Assembly (NCBI GenBank): GCA_023659895.1
Contig: JAGXOL010000001.1
Coordinates: forward strand, 15,757 to 79,756
Source of the DNA: Candidatus Aenigmarchaeota archaeon LH_S7
GTDB lineage: Archaea; Aenigmatarchaeota; Aenigmatarchaeia; QMZS01
Reading direction: 5' to 3'
DNA length: 64,000 bases
Made by a program: the position numbers and the translations under genes. Under the pieces are notes generated by a model. It was not told the DNA's origin, ran no database searches, and was given only the letters and a program-made list of their open reading frames with translations. Shown one piece after another: positions 13,901 through 63,774 of this stretch; the first letter of the stretch is position 1, and every line of letters begins with the position of its first letter.

Positions 13901-14095
13901 TCCAAGTAAAAGCCTGAATCTCTCAACACCATTTAAATTATCTTTGATCATGGCAAAAGCCTGAATATTGAAGAAAGCGGTTGCTATGTCAAAATTTGTT
14001 TTTGGATTCTCTCTTAAAACATTATTCAGGAAACTAATCAACTTGTTTCCTTCGCTGTTGTCTATTATTTCTTTTGGTATTGGCATTTTAATCAC
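10898..14095 (-). CDS. PLD-nuclease domain fused to SNF2-family helicase (DISARM DrmC+DrmD-like fusion)
   Basis: N-terminal HxK(x4)D motif HGKAYIFDDRIVIGSSNFT; helicase motifs GLGKT (I), VVDESHNFRN (II), LFLTATPINN (III), C-terminal QGQNLQ / QRAGRIDRIG (VI). Confidence 0.8.
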   Translation of the reverse strand: MIKMPIPKEIIDNSEGNKLISFLNNVLRENPKTNFDIATAFFNIQAFAMIKDNLNGVERFRLLLGKTPEIQNETTLGDVLLKEIRKEIEGFDLTKEQDKTIKLFIEFLKRKNVEIRLFEKFLHGKAYIFDDRIVIGSSNFTAAGLTRYGELNTWKQKSQAIFTRKEWFEKFWAESRDFKDELIEILENSRFGSKEYLPYDIYIKTLYEFQKDDVVEEGKNEKPKGLPETKVNLAQFQDAAIERIWKRLRKYGGCIVADSVGLGKTWIAKKILERIGYYERKNILIICPAQLMGMWAKEMKKIDVKENILSQENLASENFLEKAKKTLGGRFDDVELIVVDESHNFRNPLSNRWENFFALVNDNIAKKGKKPYMLFLTATPINNTLWDLYWQIMLLILMDRSSFIKENIPDLFKFFKQAKDNPSLLNDLLNEISIRRTRDYIIKNYPDAYIEINGEQKKIIFPERVLENINYQLDNAYKGMYKEISDIISNLKMAYYHLLEYKEGGVKTEEEMFVLNRMIQIGGIFRTILFKRLESSVESFRISIKRHIDFLEKLKKSLKAGKILGKKDFSKLLKNFGSISEEDIEEYLDKFESLEGTKLDVFEKDLYKIEDLFRDIDKDIKLLSKILEKVNTIKPEDDSKLNVLKDKLLNLSKDGQIVLFTYYADTLNYIYNEIIKDKKFSKLKIEAVSSSGLTNKNPQQREKIIEKFFKKEIDILMSTDVLSQGQNLQTAKYLINYDLHWNPTRMIQRAGRIDRIGSPYKKIFVYNFFPEDELEELLKLVEILQNKIIDIDKSVGLDQTILGEEIHPKVFGIIRKIKGKDPKIFAEVEQDAFGGGEKFYQPLKDFMKNKALEELEKIPYGVYSGLKKNKISGIFFYYKYGKDFHFWYLYDINTDSIITSKTKIIDFIACKQKEVRVIPNFFEKIYEVNRTILNKIEEDYNEVYSSQKSDTKFKEHSESKSSTFVKKMANSIEKEINDYLEEFPSDNNIQRVWDITLDKLQKIPLTKKRLQILRRIWKQYKKEGNWKKRVEELNNFLMEKGIFKKPIIEPFDKSKLQLVTIDFIS

Positions 14096-15923
14096 TTTTT
14101 ATGCTATTAAAGTAGCTTTTTAAATTTTCTTCTAAAATCTTATAAATGAAATTGAACATGGGCAAATCGTCATAAATGAAATCTAATATTCCAGTACTCA
14201 TAGAGATTAACTTGTACTTTTTTCCATTAGTTTTGACCTCTTTTTTAAAGTTTTCATGTGAAATTTCAGGCACTTCTTCGTTTTCCCCTTCTTCATAAAT
14301 TTCAACTTCTAAACCATCTTTACTTCCGTCACTTAGATAAAAAAACTGAATTTTTGGTGAGTCTTGGAATGACTTATACTCTTCTTTAACATCAAACTTT
14401 ATCATAACTTTTGATATTCCTTTAAATAAAAGTAATTTTTCTTTAATCTCTGGGAAATTATGGGACATCAGCTCAGAGTAAACTTTTGGTAAGCTATCAA
14501 AAAATATCCTTAGGTTATTTTTGACTGCATCTGGAGAAAATGTATTCCATATCCATCCGCTACCATCTTTTAATCTCGAATAGTCTTTCGGCGAATAAAC
14601 TCTATTTATATCTTTAATTTCTCTTGATTTCAAAAATAGAAACATTTCTTCAAATATCTTTAGTGGGAATCTACCATTTCCGATAGGTATTCTTGGGATG
14701 GAATCATTCTGAGTTATTCTTTCTTTTACCTTTTCTTCTACTTGTTTTCTCTCATTATCCATAATCTGGGAGATTAACATGTCTGGATCAAAGTATGGTT
14801 TCCTATACAGGCAATCTGAGTAATTCTTAATTCCATTTCTCTGATTCTTGATTAAGAATTTAATAGCTTCATCCATCCATATAGGTAAATATTTATAAAA
14901 TGCATATTCTATTTCATTAATATTAAATGCATCCTTTTTATCTAATCCCATCTGTTGATGAAATCTATCTATAAAACCAAAAATAAATTCTTTAGCTAAA
15001 AATTCGCTTACATCATGTTTCAATAATCTGTTTTTTAATAATCTAAGCATTTGAGCTTCAACAATTTCTAGTGCATATCCTTTGGGATTAGATTTTATAG
15101 GATTCTCCGCAAAATGTGCTGTAAAGCCAAGTCCCTCTTTCTCTAACTCTCTGTGCAATCCCTCGTTGACCTCCTTAATCTGAACATCATTTTTATTGGT
15201 AGATATGGGATAAAGGGCATAGTGTATCATATTATCTTCAAAACGATAATACGCTAAGCCGACTTTCCATGAGTTTGGATAAAACCTCTTTTTAATAATC
15301 AGGAATTCATTTTCTAGTAGACTATTAAACGAATCTAAGAAGAAATGAATTTTGATAAAGTCATCTTTAACTATTCTCAAAGCAGGATTTGATTTCTCAG
15401 ATAAATTTTTATAAGAGTCCTTTAGTTTATCGTATTCTTTTATCTTCTTTTTATAAGATTCAGTAATCTTTTTCCAGTCTTCAATATAACTACTATTATT
15501 ATCAATGATGTTCTCTTTTTTGAACGTTATAGTTATTGTTTTTTGATCCTCGGTGTGTAACTCACTTATTAATGAATTATTTACATGAATCCAGAAAGAT
15601 TTATTGTGATTGACATCAACACCAATCAGTAAAACCGGATTACAAGTACTGGCCTCACTATAAGAAATAAGCGAGATAGGACATTGTAATTTGTGCTTAT
15701 CCCCATTTTCTGGTAATGTCCTTATTTGAACTTCTAATTTACCAATGGGCGACCTGTTTCCGTTAACTAATTCTACATACCCGTCAATGTTCGGATACTT
15801 ATCACGTTCTTTTATGTCAGCCTTTACTTTCTCATGATTAAGGAGTTTCTTGAAAGTGTCAACTGCTTGAGTTTCTGCTTTATCAGTATTGCTATATGGT
15901 GCAGCTCTAATTTCTTCATTCAT
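14088..15923 (-). CDS. hypothetical defence-operon protein, possible N-terminal PD-(D/E)xK-like (DUF4365-like) domain
   Basis: 611 aa; N-term YPNIDGYVELVNG...IGKLEVQIRT pattern; no ATPase motifs; translationally coupled to both neighbours. Confidence 0.4.
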   Translation of the reverse strand: MNEEIRAAPYSNTDKAETQAVDTFKKLLNHEKVKADIKERDKYPNIDGYVELVNGNRSPIGKLEVQIRTLPENGDKHKLQCPISLISYSEASTCNPVLLIGVDVNHNKSFWIHVNNSLISELHTEDQKTITITFKKENIIDNNSSYIEDWKKITESYKKKIKEYDKLKDSYKNLSEKSNPALRIVKDDFIKIHFFLDSFNSLLENEFLIIKKRFYPNSWKVGLAYYRFEDNMIHYALYPISTNKNDVQIKEVNEGLHRELEKEGLGFTAHFAENPIKSNPKGYALEIVEAQMLRLLKNRLLKHDVSEFLAKEFIFGFIDRFHQQMGLDKKDAFNINEIEYAFYKYLPIWMDEAIKFLIKNQRNGIKNYSDCLYRKPYFDPDMLISQIMDNERKQVEEKVKERITQNDSIPRIPIGNGRFPLKIFEEMFLFLKSREIKDINRVYSPKDYSRLKDGSGWIWNTFSPDAVKNNLRIFFDSLPKVYSELMSHNFPEIKEKLLLFKGISKVMIKFDVKEEYKSFQDSPKIQFFYLSDGSKDGLEVEIYEEGENEEVPEISHENFKKEVKTNGKKYKLISMSTGILDFIYDDLPMFNFIYKILEENLKSYFNSIKSD

Positions 15924-15932
15924 TTTAATTCC

Positions 15933-17270
15933 TCAGTACCCATGAGCTTTTATTACCTCTTCTGTCTTTTTGAATAAGTCTTGATTGTATTCTTCTGTAA
16001 GAGCTTTAAGTTCATTCATCAATTTATTGACATCTTCTGTTTTGATATAACCGTTTTGAAAAAAATCTTCTAATTTGTCATTATCAATAACAGAAATTTT
16101 GTATTCAAAATAAAGTTTTACCAAATGTATTAGTGATTTTAGAGGAAATAATACTACTTTTAGGCTAAAGTCTTTTTCTAATGTTTTTATCATCTGATTA
16201 TCTTTTTTATTATTCAAGTCAAAATCATAAGCGAAGATTATAAAATGGGGAACTTTAAATCTAGAAGTAACATAATCCTTAGTATAGGCTTTAAGATACT
16301 TCCTTATTTGATTTTCGTGTTTTTGTAAAGGTAATTTTCCGCCTTTGTAACTCTTAATTTCTAATGGGATTAACAAACTTGGAGCACTTTTTATTACAAA
16401 TATAACTCCGTCTGGCTGATTTTTTTGGCCTAAAAGCTTTGCATTAAAAAGGGTAATTCTCAATAAGTCAGCTACATATTCTTGGAACTTTTCACCTTGA
16501 ACTTTAGAATTCTCTTTTCCTTTTTGTAACGCATAAGTTTCAATGTTCTGTATTATATCCTTCCAGAATTTTTCAATATCTACTAATTTTTTAGTATCTC
16601 TATATTTTAATTCTAATTCTAATTCTTTTCTTTTTTCTGATATTGACATTTCAATAAGTTTGAATTCTTTTTCAAAGAATTTTTTATCAAAAATCTTTTC
16701 TAAAGTTAGCAAACCGATATCTCCCCTAGAAGATAATGTGGACAGGGTAACTTCTGGACTAAAACCAATAAAGACATGAAAATCTGGAGTGTAGTTTTTA
16801 GACCAGCCTTTTAGAATATAAAGATCATTAAACCCTATTTTTTCTGTTGAAACCAAAACTGAAATCTTGAAAACTTTCCCTTGTAATAGAAATTTGTTAT
16901 TTTCTTCAGCTATGATGCTGTAGCCTTTTAGAAATCTAAGAAATTTTTCTTTAAGATACTGAATTGTTTTTTCTGTATCTAAACCAAATTCTCTAAATGC
17001 AATGTTAGAAATTCTTTTTCCACATTTTTTACAGAATGTAAATTCCATTCCTTCGGAAACACATGCAACACCACCACATTCACATTGAATCTCATATATT
17101 TTAGTAGCTCTAAGCTCCTCTAAATCATTCTTATCAAAGAACTTTATGATGCTATCTCTTTTTACAGATAATTTTCTAGATAATTCTAAGTCTGTAAAAT
17201 GCTTATCTGTTCCTTTGGATAACATTATTGAGGTAAAGATTACATTATCCTTATTCAAGCTCTTTGACAT
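15933..17270 (-). CDS. zinc-ribbon plus restriction-endonuclease-like (PD-ExK) protein
   Basis: CECGG...CKKCG ribbon near N-terminus; C-terminal QPDGVIFVIK...LIPLEIKSYK matches PD-x(n)-ExK nuclease signature. Confidence 0.5.
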   Translation of the reverse strand: MSKSLNKDNVIFTSIMLSKGTDKHFTDLELSRKLSVKRDSIIKFFDKNDLEELRATKIYEIQCECGGVACVSEGMEFTFCKKCGKRISNIAFREFGLDTEKTIQYLKEKFLRFLKGYSIIAEENNKFLLQGKVFKISVLVSTEKIGFNDLYILKGWSKNYTPDFHVFIGFSPEVTLSTLSSRGDIGLLTLEKIFDKKFFEKEFKLIEMSISEKRKELELELKYRDTKKLVDIEKFWKDIIQNIETYALQKGKENSKVQGEKFQEYVADLLRITLFNAKLLGQKNQPDGVIFVIKSAPSLLIPLEIKSYKGGKLPLQKHENQIRKYLKAYTKDYVTSRFKVPHFIIFAYDFDLNNKKDNQMIKTLEKDFSLKVVLFPLKSLIHLVKLYFEYKISVIDNDKLEDFFQNGYIKTEDVNKLMNELKALTEEYNQDLFKKTEEVIKAHGY

Positions 17271-18153
17271 GCTTCAACAAAACCTCCTTCAATTCTTTAA
17301 AAATATCCTTTATCTGTGGACGAAATGTTATTTTACCATTATCATAGAAGCTGATTGGTTTTTTGCTCATGTCCACTTTTTGAGAAATTAACTCTTTAGC
17401 AGATTCTTTAATCTTAATTCCCCTATCTTCAAAAAGCTTCAATGTCTTTTCTACATCAGAGCCTTTTATATGAATTTCATCTGCTCCAGAAAGATTTAAT
17501 CCAGTTGCCTTTACTGATTTGAATCTAATGTTTTTATCTAATTTTCTATATTCCTCTTCATTTATTTTAATCAAGTTTATAGAATCTTCTTTGAGATTAA
17601 AGTGATTTTGAAGTAAATCTTTAACAATTTCAAATTTGTTATAACTACTCGTTCTACATTCTATAATGGATATATCTGAATGATAGATGAAATATAAAGT
17701 GAATGGTCTTCTAAATCTAACATTTATTGGTTCTAATGTATTAGGTTCCTCTACGTTGCTATATTCGTAAGTATGTGAATGAGCATTCACATTAATTATA
17801 CTTTGATTATTCTGGGAAATTATTTTCTGAAATTCAAATATTAAGTCATTATCTTTATCTACAATTTTTTTGCTTTCAATTCCTTTAAACTCTAATTTCT
17901 TGTTTGAATAGGAAAAAAATACAGATCTCTTTTTAAGAAGACTATAATAATTTACGAGATATTCCAGAAGCTGTTTATCTTTTCTATACAATTCATTTAC
18001 AAAATCTTCTTTTTTTCTTGATTTTATGTCTGGAAGTTCCTTTCTTAATCTGCTTATCTTAACAATCTTCAATGCTCTTTCAATTAATTGATTTTTATCT
18101 TTCATCGTCTCAAACTCCCCGCCTTCTCCAATCTCTGCTTCACCAACTCGCAA
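17251..18153 (-). CDS. hypothetical defence-operon protein
   Basis: 300 aa, overlaps flanking genes, no recognised motif. Confidence 0.35.
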   Translation of the reverse strand: MRVGEAEIGEGGEFETMKDKNQLIERALKIVKISRLRKELPDIKSRKKEDFVNELYRKDKQLLEYLVNYYSLLKKRSVFFSYSNKKLEFKGIESKKIVDKDNDLIFEFQKIISQNNQSIINVNAHSHTYEYSNVEEPNTLEPINVRFRRPFTLYFIYHSDISIIECRTSSYNKFEIVKDLLQNHFNLKEDSINLIKINEEEYRKLDKNIRFKSVKATGLNLSGADEIHIKGSDVEKTLKLFEDRGIKIKESAKELISQKVDMSKKPISFYDNGKITFRPQIKDIFKELKEVLLKHVKELE

Positions 18154-21100
18154 ACACTCCAGTAAACCTCTTTCCTCTCCTCCTCCGTCAAGCCGAGTTC
18201 ATCAAAAATAATTTTGTCAAGCTCTGCCCTATCAGGAAGAGGTTTTGGCTCTTGTTCTCGGATTGGTTTTGATGGGTCAAGGCCGAATTCTTCGAAGATT
18301 GAGTGAACTTTTCTCTTAGAAATTTTACCGAAAATTTTTTTTAAGAAAGAAGAATTTATTTTGTTAGGATTTGGTATAAAAAATTTTCTTACTTCATATA
18401 TCATTGGTTTATTTAATCCTTCCCCGAGAGAAAACCTTCCCAAAGTTTCATAAAATAGAAATGAAATTGCCGAATTAAGCATACAGCAAATATTTTCTTT
18501 ATTGTTTTCTTTGAAATATAATCCGTACAAATTATAGTCAAGAAAACAAGTAATGTTGTTAAATGGTACAATAAATCTTTCACCAATTTGACTTGAAAAG
18601 ATAAAATCAGGGGCTTTTACTTCACCTGTAGAATACCAATTGTTTCTTCCTTTAACACTGGGAATCTCAGTATATTTAATCCCGTCTTTCTTTTGTTTCT
18701 CAGCCCACTCTATATAACTTAAAATATTTGTTCCTTTAAGTTGTTTTTTTGATTTATTACAATATAAAACATAGAATCTAAGGTTGCTTTCATTTAATAT
18801 AATAGTTTCATATTCTTTAGGTGTTTTTAAAATTTGTTTAAGATATTCCTTTTCAATACCAAGTTTCTTAATCTTATCTTTATCTAAATAAAAGAATTTA
18901 TTGATTCCGGATTTTATTCCTGGAGAAACTTTAGCAATCTTTCCTAATTCAACTAACTTCCCTTTTCCCTTCTCCAAAATTGTATAGAATATATCTGGAG
19001 CCCTCAGATATTTCCCGCCCCATTTATTGCCTTCATAACTTCCAGCTTTGAATCGGTCTTTTTTATCATAGTTTTCTGGATATTCCCAACCATCTTCAAG
19101 CAAATCTCCTTGTAAAATAGGAAAAACTCTATAATCTTGTGTTGTTTTAACATTCTTCACTAACTCAGTTATGGTTTCTCCTCTTGTTTTGACTTTAGCA
19201 TTTTCAATTTCAATCAAATTCTTTGTATTTAAAACCTCTTCAAATGGTTTTTTGAACATTACAAATTTTGCTGTGTGATTCAACATAGGCCAATCCTTTT
19301 TACCATCAACATTCAAACCTTCTATTCTTTTATCTTTAATTATAGGAGCACCAAACAAAGCAATAATGGTATTAACATCAGCATGAGCAAAACTTCTTTT
19401 TGGATTGTCATAAATTGCAGTTACAGGAGCATACCTTAACAGAAATTCCTGCAGATTCCTACCATAACCTACATCAAGCCATGAATTAGAAGTAATAAAA
19501 CAAAATGTTCCTTTTTCATTCAACAAACCCAAACCATGAAAATAGAAGTAAGTGTAATAATCACTTTTTTTATTTATCTTATTAATAATTGGAAAAATAT
19601 TTTTTACAGACTTAATCAGCTTTTCTTTATATTCTTTTCTATCTTTTAAAGTAATTTCTGCTTTTAATTTATTCGGTGGAGATATCTTTTCCTGTCTCAC
19701 ATAAGGAGGATTCCCTATAACGATATCAAAACCATTTTTGTCCCCGAAGATTTCAGCAAAGTCAATATCCCAGACAAATGGTTTCTTTTCCGGATTTTTC
19801 AGAAGTTCTTTAATTTTCTTTAGTTTTTCAATTTCTTCTTCAAATTGCTGAATTTCTTTTTCTGTTGCATTAATTTTTTCTTTTTCTTTCAGATAAACCT
19901 CAGCCTCAACATTTATCTCTGAATTAAACAATCCTACTTGTTTTCCTTGTTTCTTCATATTATTTTCCAGAGATTCGGTATCTTTTTTTAATCCCTCTAT
20001 TCGTTCATCAATTATTTCCTCAAATAATCTGGTTTCTTCGCTTCTAACTGCTTCAGGAGTCTTGAATTTTACTGTTGGAGAATTTTCAAAATATTTTCTC
20101 TTTTCCTGTTTTAGATTATCTAATTGCTCCCTTAAATGTGGTTTTATATCCTCGTTTGTTCTGAGATTAAAACTAAGCCCCCCAATTTCCTGAATTAATG
20201 AATCTCCAACCCTTAGATTAAGATTTAAATTAGGTAACAGAGGGTGTTTTCTCAATTCCTCTTTTTTAAATTCTCCTTCAACAATCAATTGCAACCACAA
20301 TCTTAATTCTGCTGCATGACTTGCCCAAGGCATTACATCAACACCATAGAGAGAATACTGAAGAATTCTCTTTTTCAACTCAAAATCCGTCAAATCATTT
20401 TTTATATTTGCATACACCATTCTGTAAAGTTCTGCGAGAACATTCAACAATCCAACTAAAAAAGCTCCTGAACCGCAGGCAGGGTCTACAGCAGATAAAT
20501 TATCCAGAACTCTTTCTATCTCATACCAAATCTTTTTATCACCAAATTCTTTCTTAAGTTTTTCCTTCTCCTCAGGAGAATCAAAAACAAGATGATAAAT
20601 TTTATCCTTTGGAATGTCAGGCAAATGTTTTGACAAATATTCAACTATTACTCTTCTGCACATGAAATCAACTTCAACTCTCGGAGTGTAGAAAATACCT
20701 AAATCATTCCTGTCATAAATCTCCTCAGCTACATTAGCCAAAGACTCATAGACATAACCAATCATCTGAGGATCAACAGCAACCTCTTGGTCTAAAGGTA
20801 TATCTTCTTTTATTGTAAAATTATATTTCTCAAAGAAATCAAAAATATTCTGAAACAATTTATCAGTTATTTCTACCTTCAATTTATCTAAATCATTTTC
20901 TTTAAATAAGCCACCATTCAGATATGGGGAATTAGAAATTACTCTATTTACTTCTTCCGGGTAACCAGTTATTTCATTTGAACGGTTATTAAAGGCTTTG
21001 AGGAAAATCTGTTTAAGCCATATTTCATAAAATTCATTGGAGTTATATTTTCCCAAATTTTTATACGACTTCCACAACCACCCAACAAATTTTGGATATT

Positions 21101-21788
21101 CAAGCCATTTCTTTTTTGAGATAAAATAGATAAACATTAATCTGTTCAGGAACTGTAAGGTAAATTCATGTGATTCTTTTCTTGGGATATTCTGTTTATT
21201 CACTTCATCCCTCAATGTAAAAAATATTTTCTTATAATCTTCAAAAAATGCTTCTGTTACTCTTTCAACGCTAAATGCTTTCTTCCATTTTCTCCAAACA
21301 TCACGCCAGTTAGTTTCTCCTTCATAACGAATATTCGAAAGAGTTTCAATAATAGTATAACCTTCTTTTTTGTTTATAATTTCGTCTCTATCTATAATCA
21401 ATTTTGTTAGTTTTAGTTTATGTTCGCCTTTTTCAGTTTTTTCACGATTCGGTAACATAAATACAATTTCAGAATAATCAGTTGCAAAAATCAATAAAAA
21501 GTGTAAATATTGTTTATCAAAAGCTGTTGTAACAGATCTTATAAAAGAAGGGTTCAATGTTTTTGTTTCAAGCAAAAAAACAGGTAGGTTCTCACCAAAA
21601 CTTGTAATTGAATACAAGTTCTTAATTCTTTGAACATCATCTTTTTTGAAATTAAAGGATTCTTTTTTTCTTTTCGTAGTTTTATAAGAATAGTTCAAAT
21701 GACTAAACAAAGTAAAAATATCATCTGCAGATTTAATTTTGCCAATATGCTGGTGTATTTTTCTCCTCAATCCTATATTATCTTCCAT
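18102..21788 (-). CDS. gamma-class N6-adenine DNA methyltransferase, large (BREX PglX / DISARM DrmMI / Type IIG-like)
   Basis: 1228 aa; GIFYTPRVEVDFM (motif X), VDPACGSGAFLVGLLN (motif I), IVIGNPPYVRQEK (motif IV NPPY); long N- and C-terminal extensions. Confidence 0.8.
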   Translation of the reverse strand: MEDNIGLRRKIHQHIGKIKSADDIFTLFSHLNYSYKTTKRKKESFNFKKDDVQRIKNLYSITSFGENLPVFLLETKTLNPSFIRSVTTAFDKQYLHFLLIFATDYSEIVFMLPNREKTEKGEHKLKLTKLIIDRDEIINKKEGYTIIETLSNIRYEGETNWRDVWRKWKKAFSVERVTEAFFEDYKKIFFTLRDEVNKQNIPRKESHEFTLQFLNRLMFIYFISKKKWLEYPKFVGWLWKSYKNLGKYNSNEFYEIWLKQIFLKAFNNRSNEITGYPEEVNRVISNSPYLNGGLFKENDLDKLKVEITDKLFQNIFDFFEKYNFTIKEDIPLDQEVAVDPQMIGYVYESLANVAEEIYDRNDLGIFYTPRVEVDFMCRRVIVEYLSKHLPDIPKDKIYHLVFDSPEEKEKLKKEFGDKKIWYEIERVLDNLSAVDPACGSGAFLVGLLNVLAELYRMVYANIKNDLTDFELKKRILQYSLYGVDVMPWASHAAELRLWLQLIVEGEFKKEELRKHPLLPNLNLNLRVGDSLIQEIGGLSFNLRTNEDIKPHLREQLDNLKQEKRKYFENSPTVKFKTPEAVRSEETRLFEEIIDERIEGLKKDTESLENNMKKQGKQVGLFNSEINVEAEVYLKEKEKINATEKEIQQFEEEIEKLKKIKELLKNPEKKPFVWDIDFAEIFGDKNGFDIVIGNPPYVRQEKISPPNKLKAEITLKDRKEYKEKLIKSVKNIFPIINKINKKSDYYTYFYFHGLGLLNEKGTFCFITSNSWLDVGYGRNLQEFLLRYAPVTAIYDNPKRSFAHADVNTIIALFGAPIIKDKRIEGLNVDGKKDWPMLNHTAKFVMFKKPFEEVLNTKNLIEIENAKVKTRGETITELVKNVKTTQDYRVFPILQGDLLEDGWEYPENYDKKDRFKAGSYEGNKWGGKYLRAPDIFYTILEKGKGKLVELGKIAKVSPGIKSGINKFFYLDKDKIKKLGIEKEYLKQILKTPKEYETIILNESNLRFYVLYCNKSKKQLKGTNILSYIEWAEKQKKDGIKYTEIPSVKGRNNWYSTGEVKAPDFIFSSQIGERFIVPFNNITCFLDYNLYGLYFKENNKENICCMLNSAISFLFYETLGRFSLGEGLNKPMIYEVRKFFIPNPNKINSSFLKKIFGKISKRKVHSIFEEFGLDPSKPIREQEPKPLPDRAELDKIIFDELGLTEEERKEVYWSVCELVKQRLEKAGSLRR

Positions 21789-22394: not shown

Positions 22395-23585
22395 AAGGCA
22401 AGAAAACTCCCGAATTTATTCGTAGAGATGAATTGCCCTTAAATAGTTTAAAAACATAATTAAATATGGTTAGAGTCAGAAAAACAATTAAATGTAAAAT
22501 AATAAAACCAACAGAGTTAAAATTAAAACATTTAAACAAAGAATATAATAATGTCCAAGAACTGCTACAATTAGAATCTAAAGGAATTGAATTTCTGCCA
22601 ATCTTTCATTCTCTAAAGAAAAAAGTTTATTCTGCTAACTTACAACAGGCTTTAAGATTTTACAAGAAGATTAAACCAAATAAAGAATATCCAATATCCT
22701 TTAGAAAGGATTTGTTAGAAGTCAGGAAAACAGATAACAAACTATCTAAATATTGGGTTAAAATACCTACTAAACAAAGAAAAGGTGGTTTAAAATTAGC
22801 AATTAAATCACAACCTTTTAATTTTAAGGATTATGAGATTTGTGAATCCAAACTATTTAAAAAGAAAAATAATTGGTTTTTAAATCTAACAGTTCAAAAG
22901 GAAGTTGAACTGAATAATACTTATGACTCTGTTCTTAGTCTTGATTTGGGACAGAAGTATATGGGCGTATCAGTGATGCATCCATCTACTTTAATGATTC
23001 CTAAATTCTACGGCAAAGAAGTCAGAGGAATAAGAAGAAACTACGACTATATTAGGAAGCAACTTGGCAAAAATAAACTACTTAAAGAAATAAAAAGATT
23101 TGGACAGAAAGAGCAAAGAAAAGTAACTGATTGTCTCCATAAAATCTCTAATGAAATAGTGGATTTGGCTCTAACCAGTAATTCTACTATTGTTGTTGGA
23201 GACCTGAAAGGGATTAGAAAATCAGCAAAAGGTAAAGGTAGAAAGTTCAATAGGATTGTTTCAAATATGCCTTATCTGGAGTTAATTCAAATGCTTGAAT
23301 ACAAAGCAAATTGGGAAGGAATAAGGGTAATTAAAGTAAATGAAAGAGGAACAAGTCATACCTGCTCCAAATGTGGTAATGAAGGTTCAAGACCAAAGCA
23401 GGGAGTTTTCAATTGTTCTGTTTGTGGATTAAAAGACTATAATGCAGATGTGAATGGTGCTTCTAATATAGGTAATAAATTGTCTTCTGGGTATATCTTG
23501 GAAGATGGGGCAACCTTGACTTTGCCCGAAACTGATGTATATGAGACATCAGAATCTTCTGACTTTAGTCGTGGAGAATGTCAAA
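22395..23585 (+). mobile_element. IS200/IS605-family TnpB-only (IS1341-like) element, copy 1
   Basis: About 70 nt left end and about 40 nt right end plus ORF are about 90% identical to copy at 34509-35689; left-end hairpin GGCAA...TTGCC. Confidence 0.7.
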
Positions 23586-23590
23586 AATAA
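22466..23590 (+). CDS. tnpB: TnpB (OrfB) RNA-guided nuclease-family transposase-associated protein
   Basis: 374 aa; RuvC-like motifs and C-terminal zinc finger CSKCG...CSVCG...NADVNGASNI. Confidence 0.8.
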   Translation: MVRVRKTIKCKIIKPTELKLKHLNKEYNNVQELLQLESKGIEFLPIFHSLKKKVYSANLQQALRFYKKIKPNKEYPISFRKDLLEVRKTDNKLSKYWVKIPTKQRKGGLKLAIKSQPFNFKDYEICESKLFKKKNNWFLNLTVQKEVELNNTYDSVLSLDLGQKYMGVSVMHPSTLMIPKFYGKEVRGIRRNYDYIRKQLGKNKLLKEIKRFGQKEQRKVTDCLHKISNEIVDLALTSNSTIVVGDLKGIRKSAKGKGRKFNRIVSNMPYLELIQMLEYKANWEGIRVIKVNERGTSHTCSKCGNEGSRPKQGVFNCSVCGLKDYNADVNGASNIGNKLSSGYILEDGATLTLPETDVYETSESSDFSRGECQK

Positions 23591-24268: not shown

Positions 24269-24603
24269 AGCCCCGTCGTCTAGTGGCCAAATTCTTCTTT
24301 CTTTAGAAAAAAAGAAGCTTTTGATAGGAAGAAAGAAAAGGAAGGCTAAACTCCCGTTTTGGATGGAACCTTCCTCATAAACCTTGGGTTTATGGGGCCC
24401 CGAAAAACAAGTTTTTCGAGGTTTTAAAAAGGTTCCAGGGTTATGGATGCTGGCCTTTGGATATCAAAGGTTGGAGAAGCTAAAAAATTATTTTGGCTTC
24501 TATGATAGAAGACAGCCAGAGACCGCGGTTCGAATGGAACATCAAAAAGATAAAATTTACCAAATCCAAAAGAAAATAAGTTTCGGGAATCCGCGCGGGG
24601 CTA
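24269..24603 (+). tRNA. tRNA-Gln(UUG) interrupted by three introns: D-loop 24287-24440 (154 nt), anticodon loop 24461-24513 (53 nt), T-loop 24536-24590 (55 nt)
   Basis: Exons AGCCCCG-TC-GTCT-AGTGG | TTAT-GGAT-G-CTGGC-CTTTGG | A-GCCAG-AGAC-CGCGG-TTCGAAT | CCGCG-CGGGGCT-A sum to 73 nt; A1:U72 and anticodon loop CUUUGGA as in archaeal tRNA-Gln. Confidence 0.65.
24378..24437. repeat. conserved about 55-nt hairpin element, copy 1 (inside tRNA-Gln intron 1)
   Basis: GGTTTATGGGGCCCCGAAAAACAAGTTTTTCGAGGTTTTAAAAAGGTTCCA about 90% identical to 28705-28763; internal stem CGAAAAAC/GTTTTTCG. Confidence 0.5.
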
Positions 24604-24956
24604 TTAAATGTGACTTCCTCTCCCTGAATAAATTCAGGAGCTTCCTTAACCAAAACACTGTTTTGAATACAGAAGGCTGGCGAGGTTCTAAAGTCACTAA
24701 CAAAACTTACTATAGCAGAGGTTTTGGTCTGACACGCTTTAGTTTAGGGCTGAGTCACCTTTTTCAGATGCCTTATTTCACTATTGTAGGGTCAGCAACC
24801 CCGTCTTCCAAGATATACCCAGAAGACAATACAGGACATGTCCGTCCATATTTAATTATGTTTTAAAAGTATTAAAGGACAATTGAGCTACACGATTTAA
24901 ATCAGGAGTTTTCTTGCCTTTGGTTAAATATAAATAATTTAAAACAAAATAATTTT

Positions 24957-28704: not shown

Positions 28705-28763
28705 TCTACCGAAGGTTTATGGGGCCCGAAAACAAAGTTTTTCGAGGTTTCTAAAGGCTTCCA
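28705..28763. repeat. conserved about 55-nt hairpin element, copy 2 (between PIN-ATPase-KH gene end and rpl15 start)
   Basis: GGTTTATGGGGCCCGAAAACAAAGTTTTTCGAGGTTTCTAAAGGCTTCCA, homolog of 24378-24437. Confidence 0.5.
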
Positions 28764-34508: not shown

Positions 34509-35689
34509 AAAGGCAAGAAAACTCCCAAATCGTGTAGAGGATTTGCCCTTAAATAATTTAAAAACATAATTAAATATGGTCTGTGTTAGAAAAACGATTA
34601 AATGCAAGATAATAAAGCCAACAGAGTTAAAGTTGAATCAATTAAACAAAGAAAATAACAATATTCAAGAACTGCTACAATTAGAAAAATTTGGTTTAGA
34701 TTTTCTACCTATTTACAATTCTCTTAAAAAGAAGGTTTATTCTGCAAATATACAACAAGCCTTAAGATTTTATAAAAAGATTAAATTAGATAAAGAATAT
34801 CCAATATCCTTTAGAAAAGATTTGTTAGAGATTAGGAAAACAGATAACAAACTTTCAGAGTATTGGGTTAAAATACCTACTAAACAAAGAAAAGGTGGAC
34901 TAAAGTTAGCAATTAAATCACAACCTTTTCTCTTTGAAGATTATGAGATTTGTGAATCTAAATTATTTAAAAAGAAAAATAATTGGTTTTTAAACCTAAC
35001 AGTTCAAAAAGAAGTTGAACTGAATAATACTTATTCCTCTGTTCTCGGTCTTGATTTGGGACAGAAGTATATGGGAGTATCGGTGATGCAACCATCTGCT
35101 TTAATGACTCCTAAATTCTACGGCAAAGAAGTCAGAGGAATAAGAAGAAAATACGACTATATTAGAAAGCAACTTGGTGAAAAGAAACTGCTTAAAGAAA
35201 TAAAAAGGTTTGGACAGAAGGAGCAAAGAAAAGTAACTGATTGTCTCCATAAAATCTCTAATGAAATAGTAGATTTGGCTCTAACCAGTAATTCTACTAT
35301 TGTTGTTGGAGACCTGAAAGGGATTAGAAAATCAGCGAAAGGCAGAAACTTCAATAGAATAATCTCAAATATGCCTTATTATCAATTAACACAAATGCTC
35401 GAATACAAAGCAAATTGGAGTGGGATAAGAGTGGTTAAAGTGAATGAAAGGGGAACAAGTCATACTTGTTGTAAATGTAGTTCTAAAGGTTCAAGACCAA
35501 AACAAGGAGTTTTCAATTGTTCTGTTTGTGGACTAAAAGACTACAATGCTGACATAAATGGTGCTACTAATATAGGTAATAAAGTGTCTTCTGGGTATAT
35601 CTTGGAAGATGGGGCAACATTGACTTTGCCCGAAACTGGTGCAATATGACATCAGAATCTCTTGACTTTAGTGATGGGAGAGGGTCAAA
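34509..35689 (+). mobile_element. IS200/IS605-family TnpB-only element, copy 2
   Basis: Homologous ends and ORF to copy 1; conserved sequence continues about 40 nt past tnpB stop (candidate omega/reRNA and right end). Confidence 0.7.
34576..35649 (+). CDS. tnpB: TnpB (OrfB) family protein, paralog of 22466-23590
   Basis: 357 aa, about 90% aa identity to copy 1; zinc finger CCKCS...CSVCG. Confidence 0.8.
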   Translation: MVCVRKTIKCKIIKPTELKLNQLNKENNNIQELLQLEKFGLDFLPIYNSLKKKVYSANIQQALRFYKKIKLDKEYPISFRKDLLEIRKTDNKLSEYWVKIPTKQRKGGLKLAIKSQPFLFEDYEICESKLFKKKNNWFLNLTVQKEVELNNTYSSVLGLDLGQKYMGVSVMQPSALMTPKFYGKEVRGIRRKYDYIRKQLGEKKLLKEIKRFGQKEQRKVTDCLHKISNEIVDLALTSNSTIVVGDLKGIRKSAKGRNFNRIISNMPYYQLTQMLEYKANWSGIRVVKVNERGTSHTCCKCSSKGSRPKQGVFNCSVCGLKDYNADINGATNIGNKVSSGYILEDGATLTLPETGAI

Positions 35690-46781: not shown

Positions 46782-48899
46782 TCAAAATTCCCCCAACTTT
46801 TTCTGCTTTTTATTTTCTAAAATGTTTTTTGAAGTTGCCCATTTTAACCTCACAATTTCATTGTAACTTTCTTTATCTAAATTCCTCAAAAATTCTGTGG
46901 TTCTTTCATCACTAGGATAACCTGAATTATGCAATAAAATACCAGAAAAGCCACCAACAAAATTCTCTATATTTTTTCCGTTTGGCTTTACTTCTAAATC
47001 ATAAACAAATTCTTTTCTTCTTAAATTTTTTATTGATTTCAGAGTATACCAACAAATATCAGAATTTAATAATTTATTTATTTTTTTGGTATCTTTACCA
47101 TCAAATATTTTTATTATCTTTCTTATAGTGGATTTTCTTATAGAACCAGATTTTTGATTCTCGATTCTACTTGTTATTCCATGATCTATACAAGTTAACT
47201 CAGCCAATTTTCTTTGGGAGATTTTATATTTTAATCTCAACTTTTTTATTGTTTTTCCTATTATCGAAGGAATATTATCTGGAGAAAGAGAATTCGTATT
47301 TTGAGAAAGCTCTCTTATTACATGCCTACCTCTACTTTGCTTAAAAGAAGAAGTAGGTTTATTTAAAAATAAATATAACCAAGATAAATCATAAAATATA
47401 TATTTGCTCCTGGTTTCTACTTCCCAATTGTTTTCATCCATATATCCATCACCATCCAGGTATCCTCTAATGAAATTTTTAATTTGTTCTTTAGAGCAGG
47501 AAAAAATAAAGTTTGGTATTCTTTTTTTGTATGCTGAATTTCCTACCCATTTATTAAAAAGTTTACATAGTATCCCTGAATTAATTTCAATACCATCTTT
47601 ATCAAATCTATAAGATGTGTTCAAATTCTTGCATGTATATTCAATTTCATTTAATACTTTATGGTCAGTGTTAGAAATACATACATTATAACCCTTTGTA
47701 TATCCCTCAGCAAGATACAACCCTAAGAGCCAAGTAAATTCTTTGTTTAGTCCTAAGATCGCTTTTATACTTGACTTTCTACCCCTACTATAAAGTATTG
47801 CATCATTTATAAATCTTTCCTTAAGGTAATCTCTCTTGAGACTAGTCACTATGTGAAGAGGTATATACGATTTCCTCTCCCATTCGTAGGATCTTACTCT
47901 ACTGTAACCTTGGGAAATACTTAGTTGCTGAATTTTTTTAAATCCCTCTCCCCTAAAAATTTTAGAGATGATCTTTCCGCTTAAATAAACAGGAGATTTC
48001 TTAGATGATGGAACAATTTTGGCAAGGTTTAAATTTTTAATACCTTTCCTTATATCTATATATTTGGCTGCTGCAATATAATCTCCAACCTTAAGATCCG
48101 AAACTTTAATGGGCATCAAATTTAAATTAGAGTTTAATTTAAAAATAGGATGGTTAAGAGTTAATCTAACTTTTTTCCCATAATTTAATTTAATTTCATA
48201 AATTGGTTGCGATGTATGTTTAATAAAGTTTGTAATTTTATATTTTTTTATTTTAAGTGAGTTTGGATCAATACTGTATGTATATAAATTCCCTTTTTCT
48301 TTATTTTCCACTACTTTTCCAATCTGCTCTAATTTTCTATCCCCTTTTCTATTTTCAATTAATATTCTCTCTTGGTATGGTAAAGATCCAAAAAATCCAT
48401 GTTTATTATGTAGCTTCTCAATCTCCCTGTCTCTTGTGACCTTTGCCAGAATGGAAGCTCCTCCAACAACAACGTACTTGTTATCTGCCTCATTCTCAGC
48501 AACAATATTTCCATCCTTGTTTTTCAATTTTTCCAAGACTTTATTCTTGAATTTCTCAGTATTGGCTTCAATAGAATCAAGATAAATTTTAGGTTTTCTC
48601 ATCCAAAAGGAATTGATTATTTGAGCGATCTTAGTAATCTCAATTTCGTTAAGATTTCTTCTTTCCATTTCTCTATTGAGTTGCTTTGATGAAATTTTTA
48701 ATACAATGTAATCATCAGCAATTTTTTTTATCTTATCTATCATTTCCTTTCTTTTCTCTGGTAAGACTTTCTTTGAGTCTTTAACACCAAGTTCTTTCAA
48801 TTTTTTTTCTTTTGATTTTTTAATCAATAAACCTGCAATAACTAGAGGACCTACAACTGCACCGCGACCAGCTTCATCAATTCCCAAAATGTAAGACAT
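46782..48899 (-). CDS. rnhB: ribonuclease HII interrupted by an about 487-aa LAGLIDADG intein
   Basis: N-extein GIDEAGRGAVVGPLVIAG...GGASILAK...HGFFG and C-extein SGYPSDERTTEF flank an insert ending ...ILLHN|S with LLGLYLAEGY and IRGYLDGDGY motifs. Confidence 0.8.
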   Translation of the reverse strand: MSYILGIDEAGRGAVVGPLVIAGLLIKKSKEKKLKELGVKDSKKVLPEKRKEMIDKIKKIADDYIVLKISSKQLNREMERRNLNEIEITKIAQIINSFWMRKPKIYLDSIEANTEKFKNKVLEKLKNKDGNIVAENEADNKYVVVGGASILAKVTRDREIEKLHNKHGFFGSLPYQERILIENRKGDRKLEQIGKVVENKEKGNLYTYSIDPNSLKIKKYKITNFIKHTSQPIYEIKLNYGKKVRLTLNHPIFKLNSNLNLMPIKVSDLKVGDYIAAAKYIDIRKGIKNLNLAKIVPSSKKSPVYLSGKIISKIFRGEGFKKIQQLSISQGYSRVRSYEWERKSYIPLHIVTSLKRDYLKERFINDAILYSRGRKSSIKAILGLNKEFTWLLGLYLAEGYTKGYNVCISNTDHKVLNEIEYTCKNLNTSYRFDKDGIEINSGILCKLFNKWVGNSAYKKRIPNFIFSCSKEQIKNFIRGYLDGDGYMDENNWEVETRSKYIFYDLSWLYLFLNKPTSSFKQSRGRHVIRELSQNTNSLSPDNIPSIIGKTIKKLRLKYKISQRKLAELTCIDHGITSRIENQKSGSIRKSTIRKIIKIFDGKDTKKINKLLNSDICWYTLKSIKNLRRKEFVYDLEVKPNGKNIENFVGGFSGILLHNSGYPSDERTTEFLRNLDKESYNEIVRLKWATSKNILENKKQKKLGEF
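46926..48386 (-). other. intein (Hint domain + LAGLIDADG homing endonuclease + HTH) within rnhB
   Basis: Begins Ser (SLPYQERIL), block B TLNHPIF, ends HN followed by +1 Ser; two LAGLIDADG blocks. Confidence 0.7.
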
Positions 48900-49118: not shown

Positions 49119-49348
49119 GGCGGGAGCTGGTCCATAGCGAACTTGCTTTTTAAGTATTAGTAAGTCTGTAAGGATGGAGCAGTTAGGAGTGCTCGTCGAA
49201 CCCTTTTCTCCCTATCGCTCTAAAAGCGTTCACGGAAAAAAAGAGAAATAGGTGCGGAAGGCTCATAAGGACCTTTTTAGAAAGAGGTTCTATCCAAAAT
49301 GCATTTGGGAGACCCGAAGGTCGGTGGTTCAAATCCACCTCCCGCTAT
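49119..49348 (+). tRNA. tRNA gene with about 150 nt of intervening sequence; identity unresolved (tentative anticodon arm GAACC-CTTTT...GGTTC would be Lys-UUU)
   Basis: 3' end GGTGG-TTCAAAT-CCACC-TCCCGCT-A pairs with GGCGGGA at 49119; internal D-arm-like GAGC-AGTTAGGAGT-GCTC at 49177-49194; several extra hairpins. Confidence 0.45.
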
Positions 49349-51092: not shown

Positions 51093-51127
51093 ATAAGTTT
51101 CTAAAGTAAGAAATTATGCGTTGGTGG

Positions 51128-51227
51128 TCTAGATCTTAACAATTTATTGTTTAGAGGACAATGGCATGATACAGCCCTGCCACGGCTGTGACCCGGGTTC
51201 GAATCCCGGCCAACGCAGAACAATTTT
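51128..51227 (+). tRNA. tRNA-Gly(GCC) with about 28 nt of insertion(s) between D-stem 5' strand and anticodon stem (51141-51181 region)
   Basis: GCGTTGG-TG-GTCT...CAGCC-CTGCCAC-GGCTG-TGAC-CCGGG-TTCGAAT-CCCGG-CCAACGC-A; D region is 41 nt instead of about 13. Confidence 0.65.
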
Positions 51228-51309: not shown

Positions 51310-51574
51310 GGGGTTGTGGTGTAACCTGGCAGCACTGCTGGCTCCAGTGGAATCTTTTTCTTTAAAAAAGAAAAACCTTCCAGTCAAAAAGAAATAGATT
51401 CCCTTCAGTCAAAAAGAAAATGGAGTTATGACGCTTCGCGGATGAATGAAGAAACCAGCCAATCCCGGTTCAAATGGAACTTTTAGAAAAAGTTCCATCA
51501 AAACAAGCTTTTAAAAAAGCTTGAGCAAAAAAGGAACCTTTTCTAAAAAGATTCTGAAAATCCGGGCAACCCCA
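51310..51574 (+). tRNA. tRNA-Trp(CCA) with two introns: canonical 37/38 (51348-51453, 106 nt) and T-loop (about 51476-51561, 86 nt)
   Basis: Exons GGGGTTG-TG-GTGT-AACCTGGCA-GCAC-T-GCTGG-CTCCAG | A-CCAGC-CAAT-CCCGG-TTCAAAT | CCGGG-CAACCCC-A give a 73-nt cloverleaf. Confidence 0.7.
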
Positions 51575-62062: not shown

Positions 62063-63022
62063 TTATTTTAATTTTTCAATCTCTTCCTCCACATTCATTT
62101 CTTTTACTTGGTTAACAATCATCTCCAAATCCCCAAAATATTCATTTTTCTTCACTCTTCCCATGAATAATCTTTCCTTGCCAACCAAGTTTTCATTTTT
62201 TATTTTTTCCGCGGTCTCCCTGAAACTTACGAAACGAAAAGCAGAAGTACCATCATCTAAATAACCGCGAAGAATCAGATTTTTTTTGGGCTCAACCTTT
62301 CCATGGTCTTTACAAACTTGGCTTCCATTAATTTCTTCAAGCTTTGCACCACATTGAGGACACGTAACAAATTCCTTTTCAGATGTTGAAACCACGGCCC
62401 CTCTTATTTCTGGAAAATCATTTTCCTTTAGATCTTTTAAGTTTTTTCTTTCAACCAAACTCTTGTACATCTCTTTTGGTTTCTCTTTTTCTTCTGTAAC
62501 CTTAATTTCTTTATCTTCCTTATCCAAAGTACTGCTTCTCCCCATGTGGATTTCTGGCATCCCAAATGTATTCGCTTTGGTGAAACCATTCTTTACTCTT
62601 ACTGTTTCACCTTCTTTGAAATCCTTGAGCAAATCTGTTTTATCATTCCAGAAAACAACTCTAATTTTTCCTGTTTCATCACCAATGTTAATGTGCTGAA
62701 CCTTACCTTTCTTACCTTTTCTTTCAAATTCATTTAATTCAGAAATATCAAGAATTTTTCCAACAATTTCCATACTTTTCATCCTAGGTATTATATTCTT
62801 TATTTTCAAAGTTCTGTCTTTTTTTTCTAATAAATCAAGACCCTCTTCCTTAGCAATTATATAAGCAGCTCCTTCCTCAGAAACAAGATTGGATAATTCA
62901 AGAACCTTTTCCTCAATCTTTTTTTCAACATCCTCTTTTGATAAATCTGTTTCATTCACAATTTTGTTTTTCAATTCCTCAAGTTCCATAATTAAGTTAA
63001 AAAATTTAATAATTATGTACAC
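62063..63022 (-). CDS. RPA-like single-stranded DNA-binding protein (OB fold + C-terminal zinc ribbon)
   Basis: OB-fold region (GKILDISELNEFERKGKKGKVQHINIGDETGKIRVVFW) and CPQCGAKLEE...CKDHG ribbon. Confidence 0.6.
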   Translation of the reverse strand: MYIIIKFFNLIMELEELKNKIVNETDLSKEDVEKKIEEKVLELSNLVSEEGAAYIIAKEEGLDLLEKKDRTLKIKNIIPRMKSMEIVGKILDISELNEFERKGKKGKVQHINIGDETGKIRVVFWNDKTDLLKDFKEGETVRVKNGFTKANTFGMPEIHMGRSSTLDKEDKEIKVTEEKEKPKEMYKSLVERKNLKDLKENDFPEIRGAVVSTSEKEFVTCPQCGAKLEEINGSQVCKDHGKVEPKKNLILRGYLDDGTSAFRFVSFRETAEKIKNENLVGKERLFMGRVKKNEYFGDLEMIVNQVKEMNVEEEIEKLK

Positions 63023-63386
63023 TTATAAAAAAGGTTATAGAGCGGAAAAAGAGCTGATTAAATTACTTACAAGTCTTGATTACGCGGTTTTGAGAGCCCC
63101 AAAATCAGGAAAGGACACAATTGATATTATAGCTTGCAAAAGAGGCCAGATTTTCGTTTTTGAGTGCAAGTTCTGGAAGTCCAGAGTGGGGATCACAGAT
63201 AGACAGTTGAATAGCTTGATTGATTTCTCAGAGAAAGCAGGGGCTATTCCATTAATAGCCTTGAAATATGAGAATGAGGGTTGGAGATTTTTGAGAGCAG
63301 AGGATGTTCAGGAAAACAATGGTACTGTTTCAGATGAACTTCTCAAAGAAAAAAGTTTCTCAGTGGATTTTTTTGAGAGATATTAA
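63015..63386 (+). CDS. hjc: Holliday junction resolvase Hjc; listed ORF over-extended, start at MYTYKKGYRAEKEL
   Basis: GYRAEKELIKLL...DIIACKRGQIFVFECKFWK...GAIPLIALKYENEGWRF matches archaeal Hjc catalytic core. Confidence 0.8.
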   Translation: MYTYKKGYRAEKELIKLLTSLDYAVLRAPKSGKDTIDIIACKRGQIFVFECKFWKSRVGITDRQLNSLIDFSEKAGAIPLIALKYENEGWRFLRAEDVQENNGTVSDELLKEKSFSVDFFERY

Positions 63387-63462
63387 GATTTTGTTAAATT
63401 ATTAATCAGTTTTGGATGTAACTTTCCTGTTTTTGGCTGAAGCCTTTTCCATGGAAAACTTC

Positions 63463-63716
63463 TGGGCTGGGGCAGATTTTCAAATTATTTTTCTTTTGGA
63501 GTTGGTAGACCTTTTCTTTCTAAAAGAAAAGGCATGCCTTTGAACTGCCGATCTTCGCCTTTCTCTTGTTTTTGGATGAAATCTCAAAGCATTGTAACTA
63601 CAAATTTATTATTTTCGTAGTTACCTTACTTTGTTTCTAAAAGGTTTTCTGTAAGGGCGACGTCCTAACCAATTATCTCCATAGTGATTTTCACTAATGG
63701 TCTAGACCACCAGCCC
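63463..63716 (-). tRNA. tRNA-Val(UAC) with three introns: D-loop (plus 63672-63701, 30 nt), canonical 37/38 (63561-63649, 89 nt), T-loop (63477-63538, 62 nt)
   Basis: Minus-strand exons GGGCTGG-TG-GTCT-AG | TGGTTA-GGAC-G-TCGCC-CTTACA | A-GGCGA-AGATC-GGCAG-TTCAAA | T-CTGCC-CCAGCCC-A sum to exactly 73 nt with fully complementary stems. Confidence 0.8.
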
Positions 63717-63774
63717 ATAAACTATTATTAATCTTTAAAAATCGGATATTTAAATTTTGAGTGGAAGTTATAAA

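Follow-up and report, generated by a model that had tools for sequence, protein, structure and literature searches.

Does a short non-coding interval in the genome of Candidatus Aenigmarchaeota archaeon LH_S7 encode a transfer RNA that has to be assembled from four exons? The interval in question (63463..63716, minus strand, 254 nt) lies in a stretch of 64,000 nucleotides of contig JAGXOL010000001.1 (assembly GCA_023659895.1), which is referred to as the window and provides the coordinates used here. The original prediction had read it as a tRNA-Val(UAC) gene whose D-loop, anticodon loop and T-loop are each interrupted by an intron. This reading is borne out by a canonical spliced product, by precise intron-less orthologues and by splice motifs similar to a bulge-helix-bulge (BHB) in register with the introns. 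We consider it very probable that the interval is a functional tRNA-Val(UAC) gene giving rise to a precursor of about 254 nt with three protein-spliced introns of the BHB type.

On the minus strand the gene runs from G1 (63716) to the discriminator base A73 (63463). Exon 1 (GGGCUGGUGGUCUAG, 63702..63716) comprises the 5' strand of the acceptor stem, U8 and G9, the 5' strand of the D-stem (GUCU) and A14 G15. It is followed by intron 1 (ACCAUUAGUGAAAAUCACUAUGGAGAUAA, 63673..63701, 29 nt), which interrupts the D-loop at position 15/16. Exon 2 (UUGGUUAGGACGUCGCCCUUACA, 63650..63672) contains the remaining D-loop, the 3' strand of the D-stem, the 5' strand of the anticodon stem and nucleotides 32-37 with the anticodon UAC. 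The 89-nt intron 2 (63561..63649), which occupies the canonical site 37/38 of the anticodon loop, separates it from exon 3 (AGGCGAAGAUCGGCAGUUCAAA, 63539..63560), which covers A38, the 3' strand of the anticodon stem, the variable loop AGAUC, the 5' strand of the T-stem and U54-A59. Intron 3 (63477..63538, 62 nt) is inserted in the T-loop at 59/60, and exon 4 (UCUGCCCCAGCCCA, 63463..63476) supplies U60, the 3' strands of the T-stem and of the acceptor stem, and A73. The CCA end is absent from the gene sequence, the 3' flank being GAA.

The spliced sequence (GGGCUGGUGGUCUAGUUGGUUAGGACGUCGCCCUUACAAGGCGAAGAUCGGCAGUUCAAAUCUGCCCCAGCCCA) folds into a cloverleaf that has a 7-bp acceptor stem and canonically sized D, anticodon and T arms. 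It contains 21 stem pairs together with U8, A14, G18 G19, U33, U54 U55 C56, A58 and A73, and the Val identity nucleotides A35 C36 are present in addition to the discriminator A73. ARAGORN, which is permissive, predicted tRNA-Val(tac) for a 73-nt and a 74-nt spliced version alike. The unspliced locus was matched neither by ARAGORN, with or without its intron option, nor by Rfam RF00005, as is to be expected because of the three insertions. In the unconstrained minimum free energy (MFE) fold of the 254-nt precursor (-74.6 kcal/mol) the acceptor, D, anticodon and T stems all form, and none of 200 dinucleotide-preserving shuffles folded as well (z = -6.35). The G+C content is about 58% in the exons and about 29% in the introns, compared to 31.5% in the window. 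All open reading frames (ORFs) that overlap the gene are at most 43 amino acids long, and the interval is non-coding.

An A/T-rich box (GAUUUUUAAAGAUUAA, 63728..63743, minus strand) at about -27 to -12 represents a putative archaeal promoter element and has counterparts upstream of the orthologous genes of related contigs, which are designated here by the handles L002 to L024: (GA)TTTTAAAAGATTAA in L015 and L016 and TTTTAAAAAATTAA in L018/L019. The box is followed by UUUAU immediately before G1. The conserved A/T box and the UUUAU suggest that this region is the promoter of the Val gene.

A tRNA-Val gene is located in antisense orientation after the gene of the resolvase Hjc in 15 related contigs, which represent 12 distinct gene sequences. 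The synteny of Hjc and tRNA-Val is not universal, since no tRNA-Val gene follows Hjc in L002, L003 and L006, which are the nearest Hjc-bearing genome contig loci, or in L020. Spliced alignment of the orthologous loci revealed four intron sites in total (15/16, 33/34, 37/38 and 59/60), which are occupied in different combinations. L015, the Hjc of which is 83% identical to that of the window, lacks the D-loop intron and carries introns of 43 nt at 37/38 and of 111 nt in the T-loop. L016/L017 and L021 (Hjc 79%) also have three introns, namely 49-52 nt in the D-loop, 26 nt at 33/34 as the middle intron and 108-109 nt in the T-loop, and L018/L019 (Hjc 77%) retain a T-loop intron of 53-54 nt alone. 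Furthermore, a D-loop intron is the only one in L011/L012 (53 nt) and in L008 and L013 (32-33 nt); it is combined with a T-loop intron in L007, L009 and L010 (32 nt and 105-115 nt, respectively), and L004/L005 possess solely a T-loop intron of 60 nt. The intron at 37/38 is common only to the window, L015 and the 99% identical strain L022, all other orthologues being devoid of it. Precise intron-less alleles with continuous exon sequence were thus found for each of the three introns of the window; in L011/L012, for instance, exon 3 is joined directly to exons 2 and 4. Two of the single-intron orthologues are recognised by RF00005 (L011 with 35.7 bits and L008 with 34.9 bits, the gathering threshold being 29), with misplaced 5' ends.

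The exons are identical at 74 of 74 nucleotides between the window, L015, L016/L017 and L021, the Hjc proteins of which are just 79-83% identical to that of the window. Of the 15 orthologous loci, 13 have an unchanged exon 1, and L018/L019 show a single substitution (GGUCGAG) in it. Homologous introns share 41-43% identity with those of the window and 74-100% among the other lineages, and the differences between the window and its 99% identical strain within the Val gene are confined to the introns. Over five distinct orthologous exon sequences, 97.1% of the stem cells are paired versus 33-48% with slid partners, and compensatory double changes occur at four pairs (27-43, 28-42, 31-39 and 52-62). 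The combination of invariant exons, intron turnover and covariation marks a functional, spliced gene; a pseudogene or a chance match would not produce it.

The BHB motif consists of a central helix (H) of 4 bp between two 3-nt bulges, with cuts two nucleotides into each bulge, and the canonical case places the first two anticodon bases in the central helix (PMC4090602). We applied this geometry to each sequence-equivalent register of every intron. This revealed a BHB-like motif at each intron, in relaxed form: none of the three introns fits the strict hBHBh' arrangement, intron 1 being HBh' and introns 2 and 3 being hBH, which are relaxed forms described by Marck and Grosjean in 2003 (reviewed in PMC4090602).

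For intron 1 the register is unique, with H formed by all four pairs of GUCU (10-13) and AGAU, bulges AG|A and AA|U, h' formed by CCAUUAGUGA/UCACUAUGG, and h reduced to two wobble pairs. The four pairs of H are complete in all nine orthologues with a D-loop intron, where GUCU faces AGAU, AGGC or GGGC, the bulges measure 3 nt and h' comprises 3-6 bp. In intron 3 the 5-bp T-stem serves as h and UUCA (54-57) pairs completely with UGAA between the bulges AA|G and AA|U; of the four possible registers 59/60 alone works. The T-loop H is likewise complete in most orthologues, with UGGA in L010 and a doubly compensated UUCG/CGAA in L018/L019. The orthologues thus retain the registers, with changes on one side of H and one double compensatory change. 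Intron 2 uses the 5-bp anticodon stem as h, and its H (CUUA/AGAG) forms three of four pairs with bulges CA|G and AA|A at 37/38, while the 33/34 intron of L016/L017 and L021 has a complete H. Forcing each motif costs 2-4 kcal/mol above the MFE, and all three jointly give -66.5 versus -74.6 kcal/mol.

The insertion lengths of the original prediction (30, 89 and 62 nt) hold for the anticodon-loop and T-loop introns, and the first is most probably 29 nt. The boundaries of the former two are each ambiguous by 1-3 nt in the sequence, and the BHB geometry favours 37/38 and 59/60. With respect to the D-loop, the intron-free L015 reads GUCU-AGUUGGUUA-GGAC and L018/L019 read GUCG-AGUUGGUUA-AGAC. Since AGUUGGUUA stands in the intron-free orthologues, the 3' exon of the window should start with UUGGUUA, and the BHB register (AA|U) cuts the intron at the very place predicted from these orthologues. 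The D-loop intron would thus most probably comprise 29 nt (63701-63673) and leave the D-loop AGUUGGUUA, from which a mature tRNA of 74 nt follows. Deletion of 30, 89 and 62 nt does yield the cloverleaf of exactly 73 nt that had been proposed, with the D-loop AGUGGUUA, and ARAGORN accepts this product as a valid tRNA-Val as well; moreover, the D-loop length varies among the orthologues (7 nt in L004/L005, 8 in the L007 type and 9 in L015/L018). The 30-nt boundary is nevertheless unlikely, given that L015, L016/L017 and L021 match all other exon nucleotides of the window and the intron-free L015 reads AGUUGGUUA, that the BHB register sets the 3' cut after AA and before UU, and that cleavage would otherwise fall three nucleotides into a four-nucleotide bulge.

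The processing of the Val precursor is presumed to follow the archaeal tRNA splicing pathway (PMC4090602, PMC5829648). In the sequence, the four exon nucleotides just before each 5' splice site (10-13, 32-35 and 54-57) pair with the four intron nucleotides before the corresponding 3' site to form the central BHB helix, so that every splice site falls two nucleotides inside a bulge of 3 nt. The splicing endonuclease EndA would then cut at the six bulges and release the introns, and an RtcB-type ligase would join the four exons to the 74-nt tRNA. As the CCA end is not encoded, it would be added after splicing. Because the motifs are of the HBh' and hBH types the endonuclease must tolerate relaxed substrates, and a host enzyme of broad specificity, as suggested by the original prediction, appears to be a reasonable assumption. 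In DPANN archaea broad specificity is associated with an alpha4-type EndA with an L3 loop or with an epsilon2 EndA (PMC5829648, PMC3488258).

Several observations weigh against a gene that is spliced in this way. We infer transcription, cleavage and ligation of the Val precursor from the sequence, and no EndA (PF01974, PF02778) or RtcB was detected by Pfam searches among the ORFs of at least 120 amino acids in the 64-kb window. A search with the EndA of Methanocaldococcus jannaschii, the query sequence of which was checked against PDB 1A79, retrieved alpha-type proteins of DPANN archaea, none of which was labelled as Aenigmatarchaeota or derived from JAGXO* contigs. The motif of the 37/38 intron has only three of the four central pairs and lacks h'; h' is also lacking in the T-loop intron, for which the L004/L005 orthologue shows no clean motif with 3-nt bulges. 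Furthermore, oligo-U runs within the introns (UUUUCUUUU) could serve as archaeal terminators. A decaying tRNA pseudogene, struck by short repeat insertions and neither spliced nor used, would moreover be in line with intron modules that are repeated and present in several tRNA genes, with some of their pieces located outside tRNA genes and inverted, and with an insertion and a duplication at the 3' end of the Val gene in L022. Such decay is highly improbable in view of exons that are 100% conserved as opposed to diverging introns that turn over, of the compensatory changes in the stems, and of splice-motif helices that are kept, in part by compensation. The single-nucleotide polymorphisms between the two 99% identical strains are all intronic in this gene. 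Moreover, none of the window's six tRNA genes is free of introns, so that the cell must be able to process such genes.

The length of the 62-nt and 89-nt introns, which exceeds the archaeal tRNA intron median of 12-25 nt (PMC4090602), and the partial conservation of the T-loop intron across lineages might point to at least one insertion that hosts a functional small RNA, such as a box C/D or H/ACA guide, or that is self-splicing. This is very doubtful, since no Rfam family gave a meaningful match even at E = 0.1, neither a C box (RUGAUGA) nor a D box (CUGA) was visible by eye, the insertions fall far short of group I or group II introns in length, and BHB motifs are present. Three freely chosen deletions, finally, offer many degrees of freedom, and given a program as permissive as ARAGORN the cloverleaf might be regarded as a product of chance. 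The probability of this is negligible: the comparative data, which comprise syntenic orthologues with identical exons and differing intron sets as well as covariation, refute it, as does the z-score of the native fold (-6.35). Taking both sides into account, a functional tRNA-Val(UAC) gene with three BHB-type introns remains by far the most probable reading.

The other tRNA genes of the window, which were located by a scan for paired acceptor and T-stems and then spliced manually, show that the Val gene is not an isolated case. The six genes contain about 13 introns in total, and ARAGORN accepts the spliced products of all of them; without splicing, ARAGORN detected one gene, which was misplaced, and Rfam another. 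The latter is tRNA-Ser(CGA) (8043-8154, plus strand), the sole tRNA of the window found by Rfam, which has one intron of 28 nt at 54/55 in the T-loop. The TTG-start ORF 6814-8223 (PGK) overlaps this gene, so that the true PGK start is probably located further downstream.

The tRNA-Gln(UUG) gene (24396-24603, plus strand, 208 nt) has introns of 53 nt at 37/38 and 55 nt at 59/60 with full BHBs, and it probably carries a third intron after the 7-nt acceptor strand. For the latter no BHB was found at the guessed register, and a brute-force test of its boundaries with ARAGORN was too permissive to discriminate. A 160-aa ORF without Pfam match (24384-24866) overlaps the Gln gene and is probably spurious. 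The tRNA-Met(CAU) gene (49119-49347, plus strand, 229 nt) is interrupted near 4/5-7/8, at 29/30 (61 nt) and at 37/38 (44 nt). It was missed by ARAGORN and Rfam alike in the unspliced form and accepted by ARAGORN once spliced (75 nt). Its anticodon stem (GGG/CCC) is initiator-like, three G-C pairs in this stem being typical of initiator tRNA. In tRNA-Gly(GCC) (51118-51217, plus strand) a single intron of 29 nt at 15/16 follows the same design as in Val, and tRNA-Trp(CCA) (51310-51574, plus strand) has introns of 106 nt at 37/38 and 86 nt at 59/60. The ARAGORN prediction of tRNA-Gly at 51145-51216 was rejected as a miscall that starts inside the intron, as was the spurious 'tRNA-Pro(agg)' at 51117-51218, which the intron option placed at the same Gly(GCC) locus. 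A relaxed Rfam search for box C/D RNA in the introns of the Met, Gly and Trp region revealed nothing meaningful.

In five of the six tRNA genes TTAT or ATAT stands directly before the first G, and the Gln gene has two extra Gs at this place (TTTATGG|G). By analogy with Nanoarchaeum equitans, the fixed 5' context and the A/T box upstream of the Val gene raise the possibility of leaderless tRNA transcription.

The introns themselves appear to be composed of modules. Intron 2 of the Val gene holds a palindromic hairpin of about 47 nt (CAAAG..GUAACUAC..GUAGUUAC..CUUUG, approximately 63578-63626, minus strand), which is missing from the homologous 43-nt intron of L015. In L015, L016 and L021 this hairpin is instead found in the T-loop intron, and compared with L015 it matches better as reverse complement (43/49, loop 13/15) than directly (37/49, loop 7/15). 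Intron 3 contains an internal hairpin (CCUUUUCUUUUAGAAAGAAAAGG) followed by UCUACC..CCAAAAGAAAAAUAAUUU, a module common to other introns; parts of this T-loop intron are conserved across lineages. The shared module consists of a hairpin CYUUUUU..AAAAARG and a subsequent UCA-N-CCAAAA.

Local alignments of the introns against 300 mononucleotide shuffles gave z-scores of 4.4 to 19 for eleven pairs, the lower values being soft in such A/T-rich sequences, and seven of these pairs combine different tRNAs or positions. The Val T-loop intron aligns with the Gln T-loop intron (z = 8.2) and with the Trp 37/38 intron (z = 7.2), and the latter aligns with the Val T-loop intron of L004 (z = 19). An nhmmer profile of the module was discarded in favour of these pairwise alignments, because its strong matches in the window were its own training members and the E-values circular. 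A further repeat of about 50 nt (..GGTTTATGGGGCCCGAAAACAAAGTTTTTCGAGGTTT..) at 24370-24424 (plus strand) spans the upstream region, the first exon and the first intron of tRNA-Gln; other copies are located in the intergenic region 28708-28755 (plus strand) and in an insertion of L022.

In L022 (10373-10990) the same triple-intron tRNA-Val gene is followed by this insertion of about 227 nt (compared to 63455-63530 of the window) and then by a duplicate of roughly the final 60 nt, which comprises the end of the T-loop intron, the 3' exon and the trailer. The insertion is a mosaic, in which the Trp T-loop intron is present as its reverse complement together with an element resembling the 5' part of tRNA-Gln. 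The Logan contig L024, which originates from another sample, stops exactly within the L022-type repeat. The insertion and duplication may reflect either a true polymorphism between strains or a chimera of the assembly.

According to these alignments and to the distribution among orthologues, the Val introns belong to a lineage-wide population of tRNA introns that appear to have been gained and lost and are partly paralogous. It is conceivable, albeit doubtful, that the tRNA introns of this lineage represent a family of small mobile elements of modular build that is active at present. The mobile module would be the hairpin with its UCA-N-CCAAAA tail, at times together with the palindromic sub-element of about 47 nt. 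Such a scenario fits the occurrence of modules at different tRNAs and positions, the sub-modules that appear swapped between introns in either orientation, the pieces outside tRNA genes and the L022 insertion and duplication between 99% identical strains; if it were true, the gain of tRNA introns would be observable in the act. Scans of viral contigs with the tRNA-Val 3' end as a possible integration site, with and without the T-loop intron, gave no match in either case. Similar introns in different tRNAs and positions have also been described as intron transposition in Thermoproteales (PMC4033280), which differs from the present case by another module; here the palindromic sub-element occurs in opposite orientations and related pieces are found outside tRNA genes.

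The original prediction regarded triple-intron tRNAs as rare and mainly associated with Thermoproteales. This view is dated, since disrupted tRNA genes have already been linked to DPANN archaea (PMC5829648) and, besides Val, the Met gene and probably also the Gln gene of the window have three introns. An example is tRNA-Pro(UGG) of Pyrobaculum islandicum with introns at 25/26, 37/38 and 56/57 (Sugahara 2007, 2008; reviewed in PMC4090602 and PMC4033280). In common with Thermoproteales, there are up to three BHB-type introns per gene, the canonical one being accompanied by introns in the D and T regions, as well as relaxed HBh' and hBH motifs and a high intron density over the tRNA set. In contrast, the host described here is a low-G+C DPANN archaeon, the non-canonical positions are 15/16 and 59/60, and the introns, with 29, 89 and 62 nt, exceed those of Thermoproteales in length; the endonuclease of Thermoproteales has the (alpha-beta)2 architecture with an L1 loop.

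Nearly complete interruption of the tRNA gene set has been reported for the Asgard Atabeyarchaeia and Freyarchaeia (92-95% there, six of six here); there as here, more than half of the genes have multiple introns, many of them non-canonical, and standard finders miss introns (PMC11291895). These archaea belong to another superphylum, and the present data represent a 64-kb sample of a genome. The disrupted tRNA genes of DPANN archaea (PMC3488258, PMC5829648) resemble the Val gene in their host group and in their non-canonical and multiple introns. The disruption of tRNA genes is increased in DPANN and is said to correlate with loop insertions in EndA that relax its substrate specificity (PMC5829648, PMC3488258). 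The endonucleases described include the epsilon2 EndA of ARMAN-2 and the alpha4-type EndA with L3 loop (PMC3488258, PMC5829648), and their link to the lineage of the window is presumed. No Aenigmatarchaeota are among the DPANN genomes with newly predicted tRNA genes in PMC5829648, and full-text literature searches retrieved no description of multi-intron tRNAs in Aenigmatarchaeota.

The triple-intron tRNA-Val is thus genuine, yet it adds one more case to what has been reported from other archaea before. With it, heavy disruption of tRNA genes by multiple introns reaches to the Aenigmatarchaeota, and no new mechanism is revealed. If about 13 introns in six genes were representative of the whole genome, the intron density would equal or exceed the highest one reported. 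What makes the case interesting is not so much the single gene as the apparently dynamic introns of an entire lineage and a blind spot of annotation: standard tRNA finders miss or miscall such genes, so that the tRNA complements and the completeness estimates of DPANN genomes are understated unless split-aware searches are used. Furthermore, the locus provides a clean natural experiment in which one syntenic tRNA with invariant exons has or lacks introns at four sites. It can serve to date intron gain and loss and may be used to test the recognition requirements of DPANN splicing endonucleases.

Judging from the encoded proteins, the host is a low-G+C member of the Candidatus Aenigmatarchaeota (DPANN). 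All named relatives of the Hjc protein originate from metagenome-assembled genomes of Candidatus Aenigmatarchaeota (Aenigmarchaeota), and the archaeal proteins of the window include Hjc, an aIF2-alpha-like protein, NFACT, geranylgeranyl reductase, PCNA, the small subunit of DNA polymerase and ribosomal proteins. The DNA of the window shows 100% identity with a Logan contig of SRR14170872 and 99.1-99.5% with JAGXOM010000001.1 (GCA_023659905.1), the contig designated L022. The Val gene is flanked on one side by the Hjc resolvase gene (63015-63386, plus strand) and on the other by a small gene starting at 63775, which has no Pfam match and the L015 orthologue of which shows a weak KOW match. A 9-kb extension beyond the contig by means of L022 contained no further tRNA genes.

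Apart from the tRNA genes, the window contains a probable defence island (10236-21788, minus strand) with a restriction-modification fusion of the Eco57I/MmeI type (1228 aa), a SNF2 helicase with a PLD nuclease domain (1065 aa), a DUF4365 protein and ORFs without Pfam match. The RNase HII gene (46782-48899, minus strand) is split by an intein with a LAGLIDADG homing-endonuclease domain (Pfam RNase_HII, Intein_splicing and LAGLIDADG_3). Two TnpB-like ORFs with a Cas12f1-like_TNB domain (22466-23590 and 34576-35649, both plus strand) and a third one in L022 (11717-12856), beyond the end of the window, indicate elements of the IS200/IS605 type.

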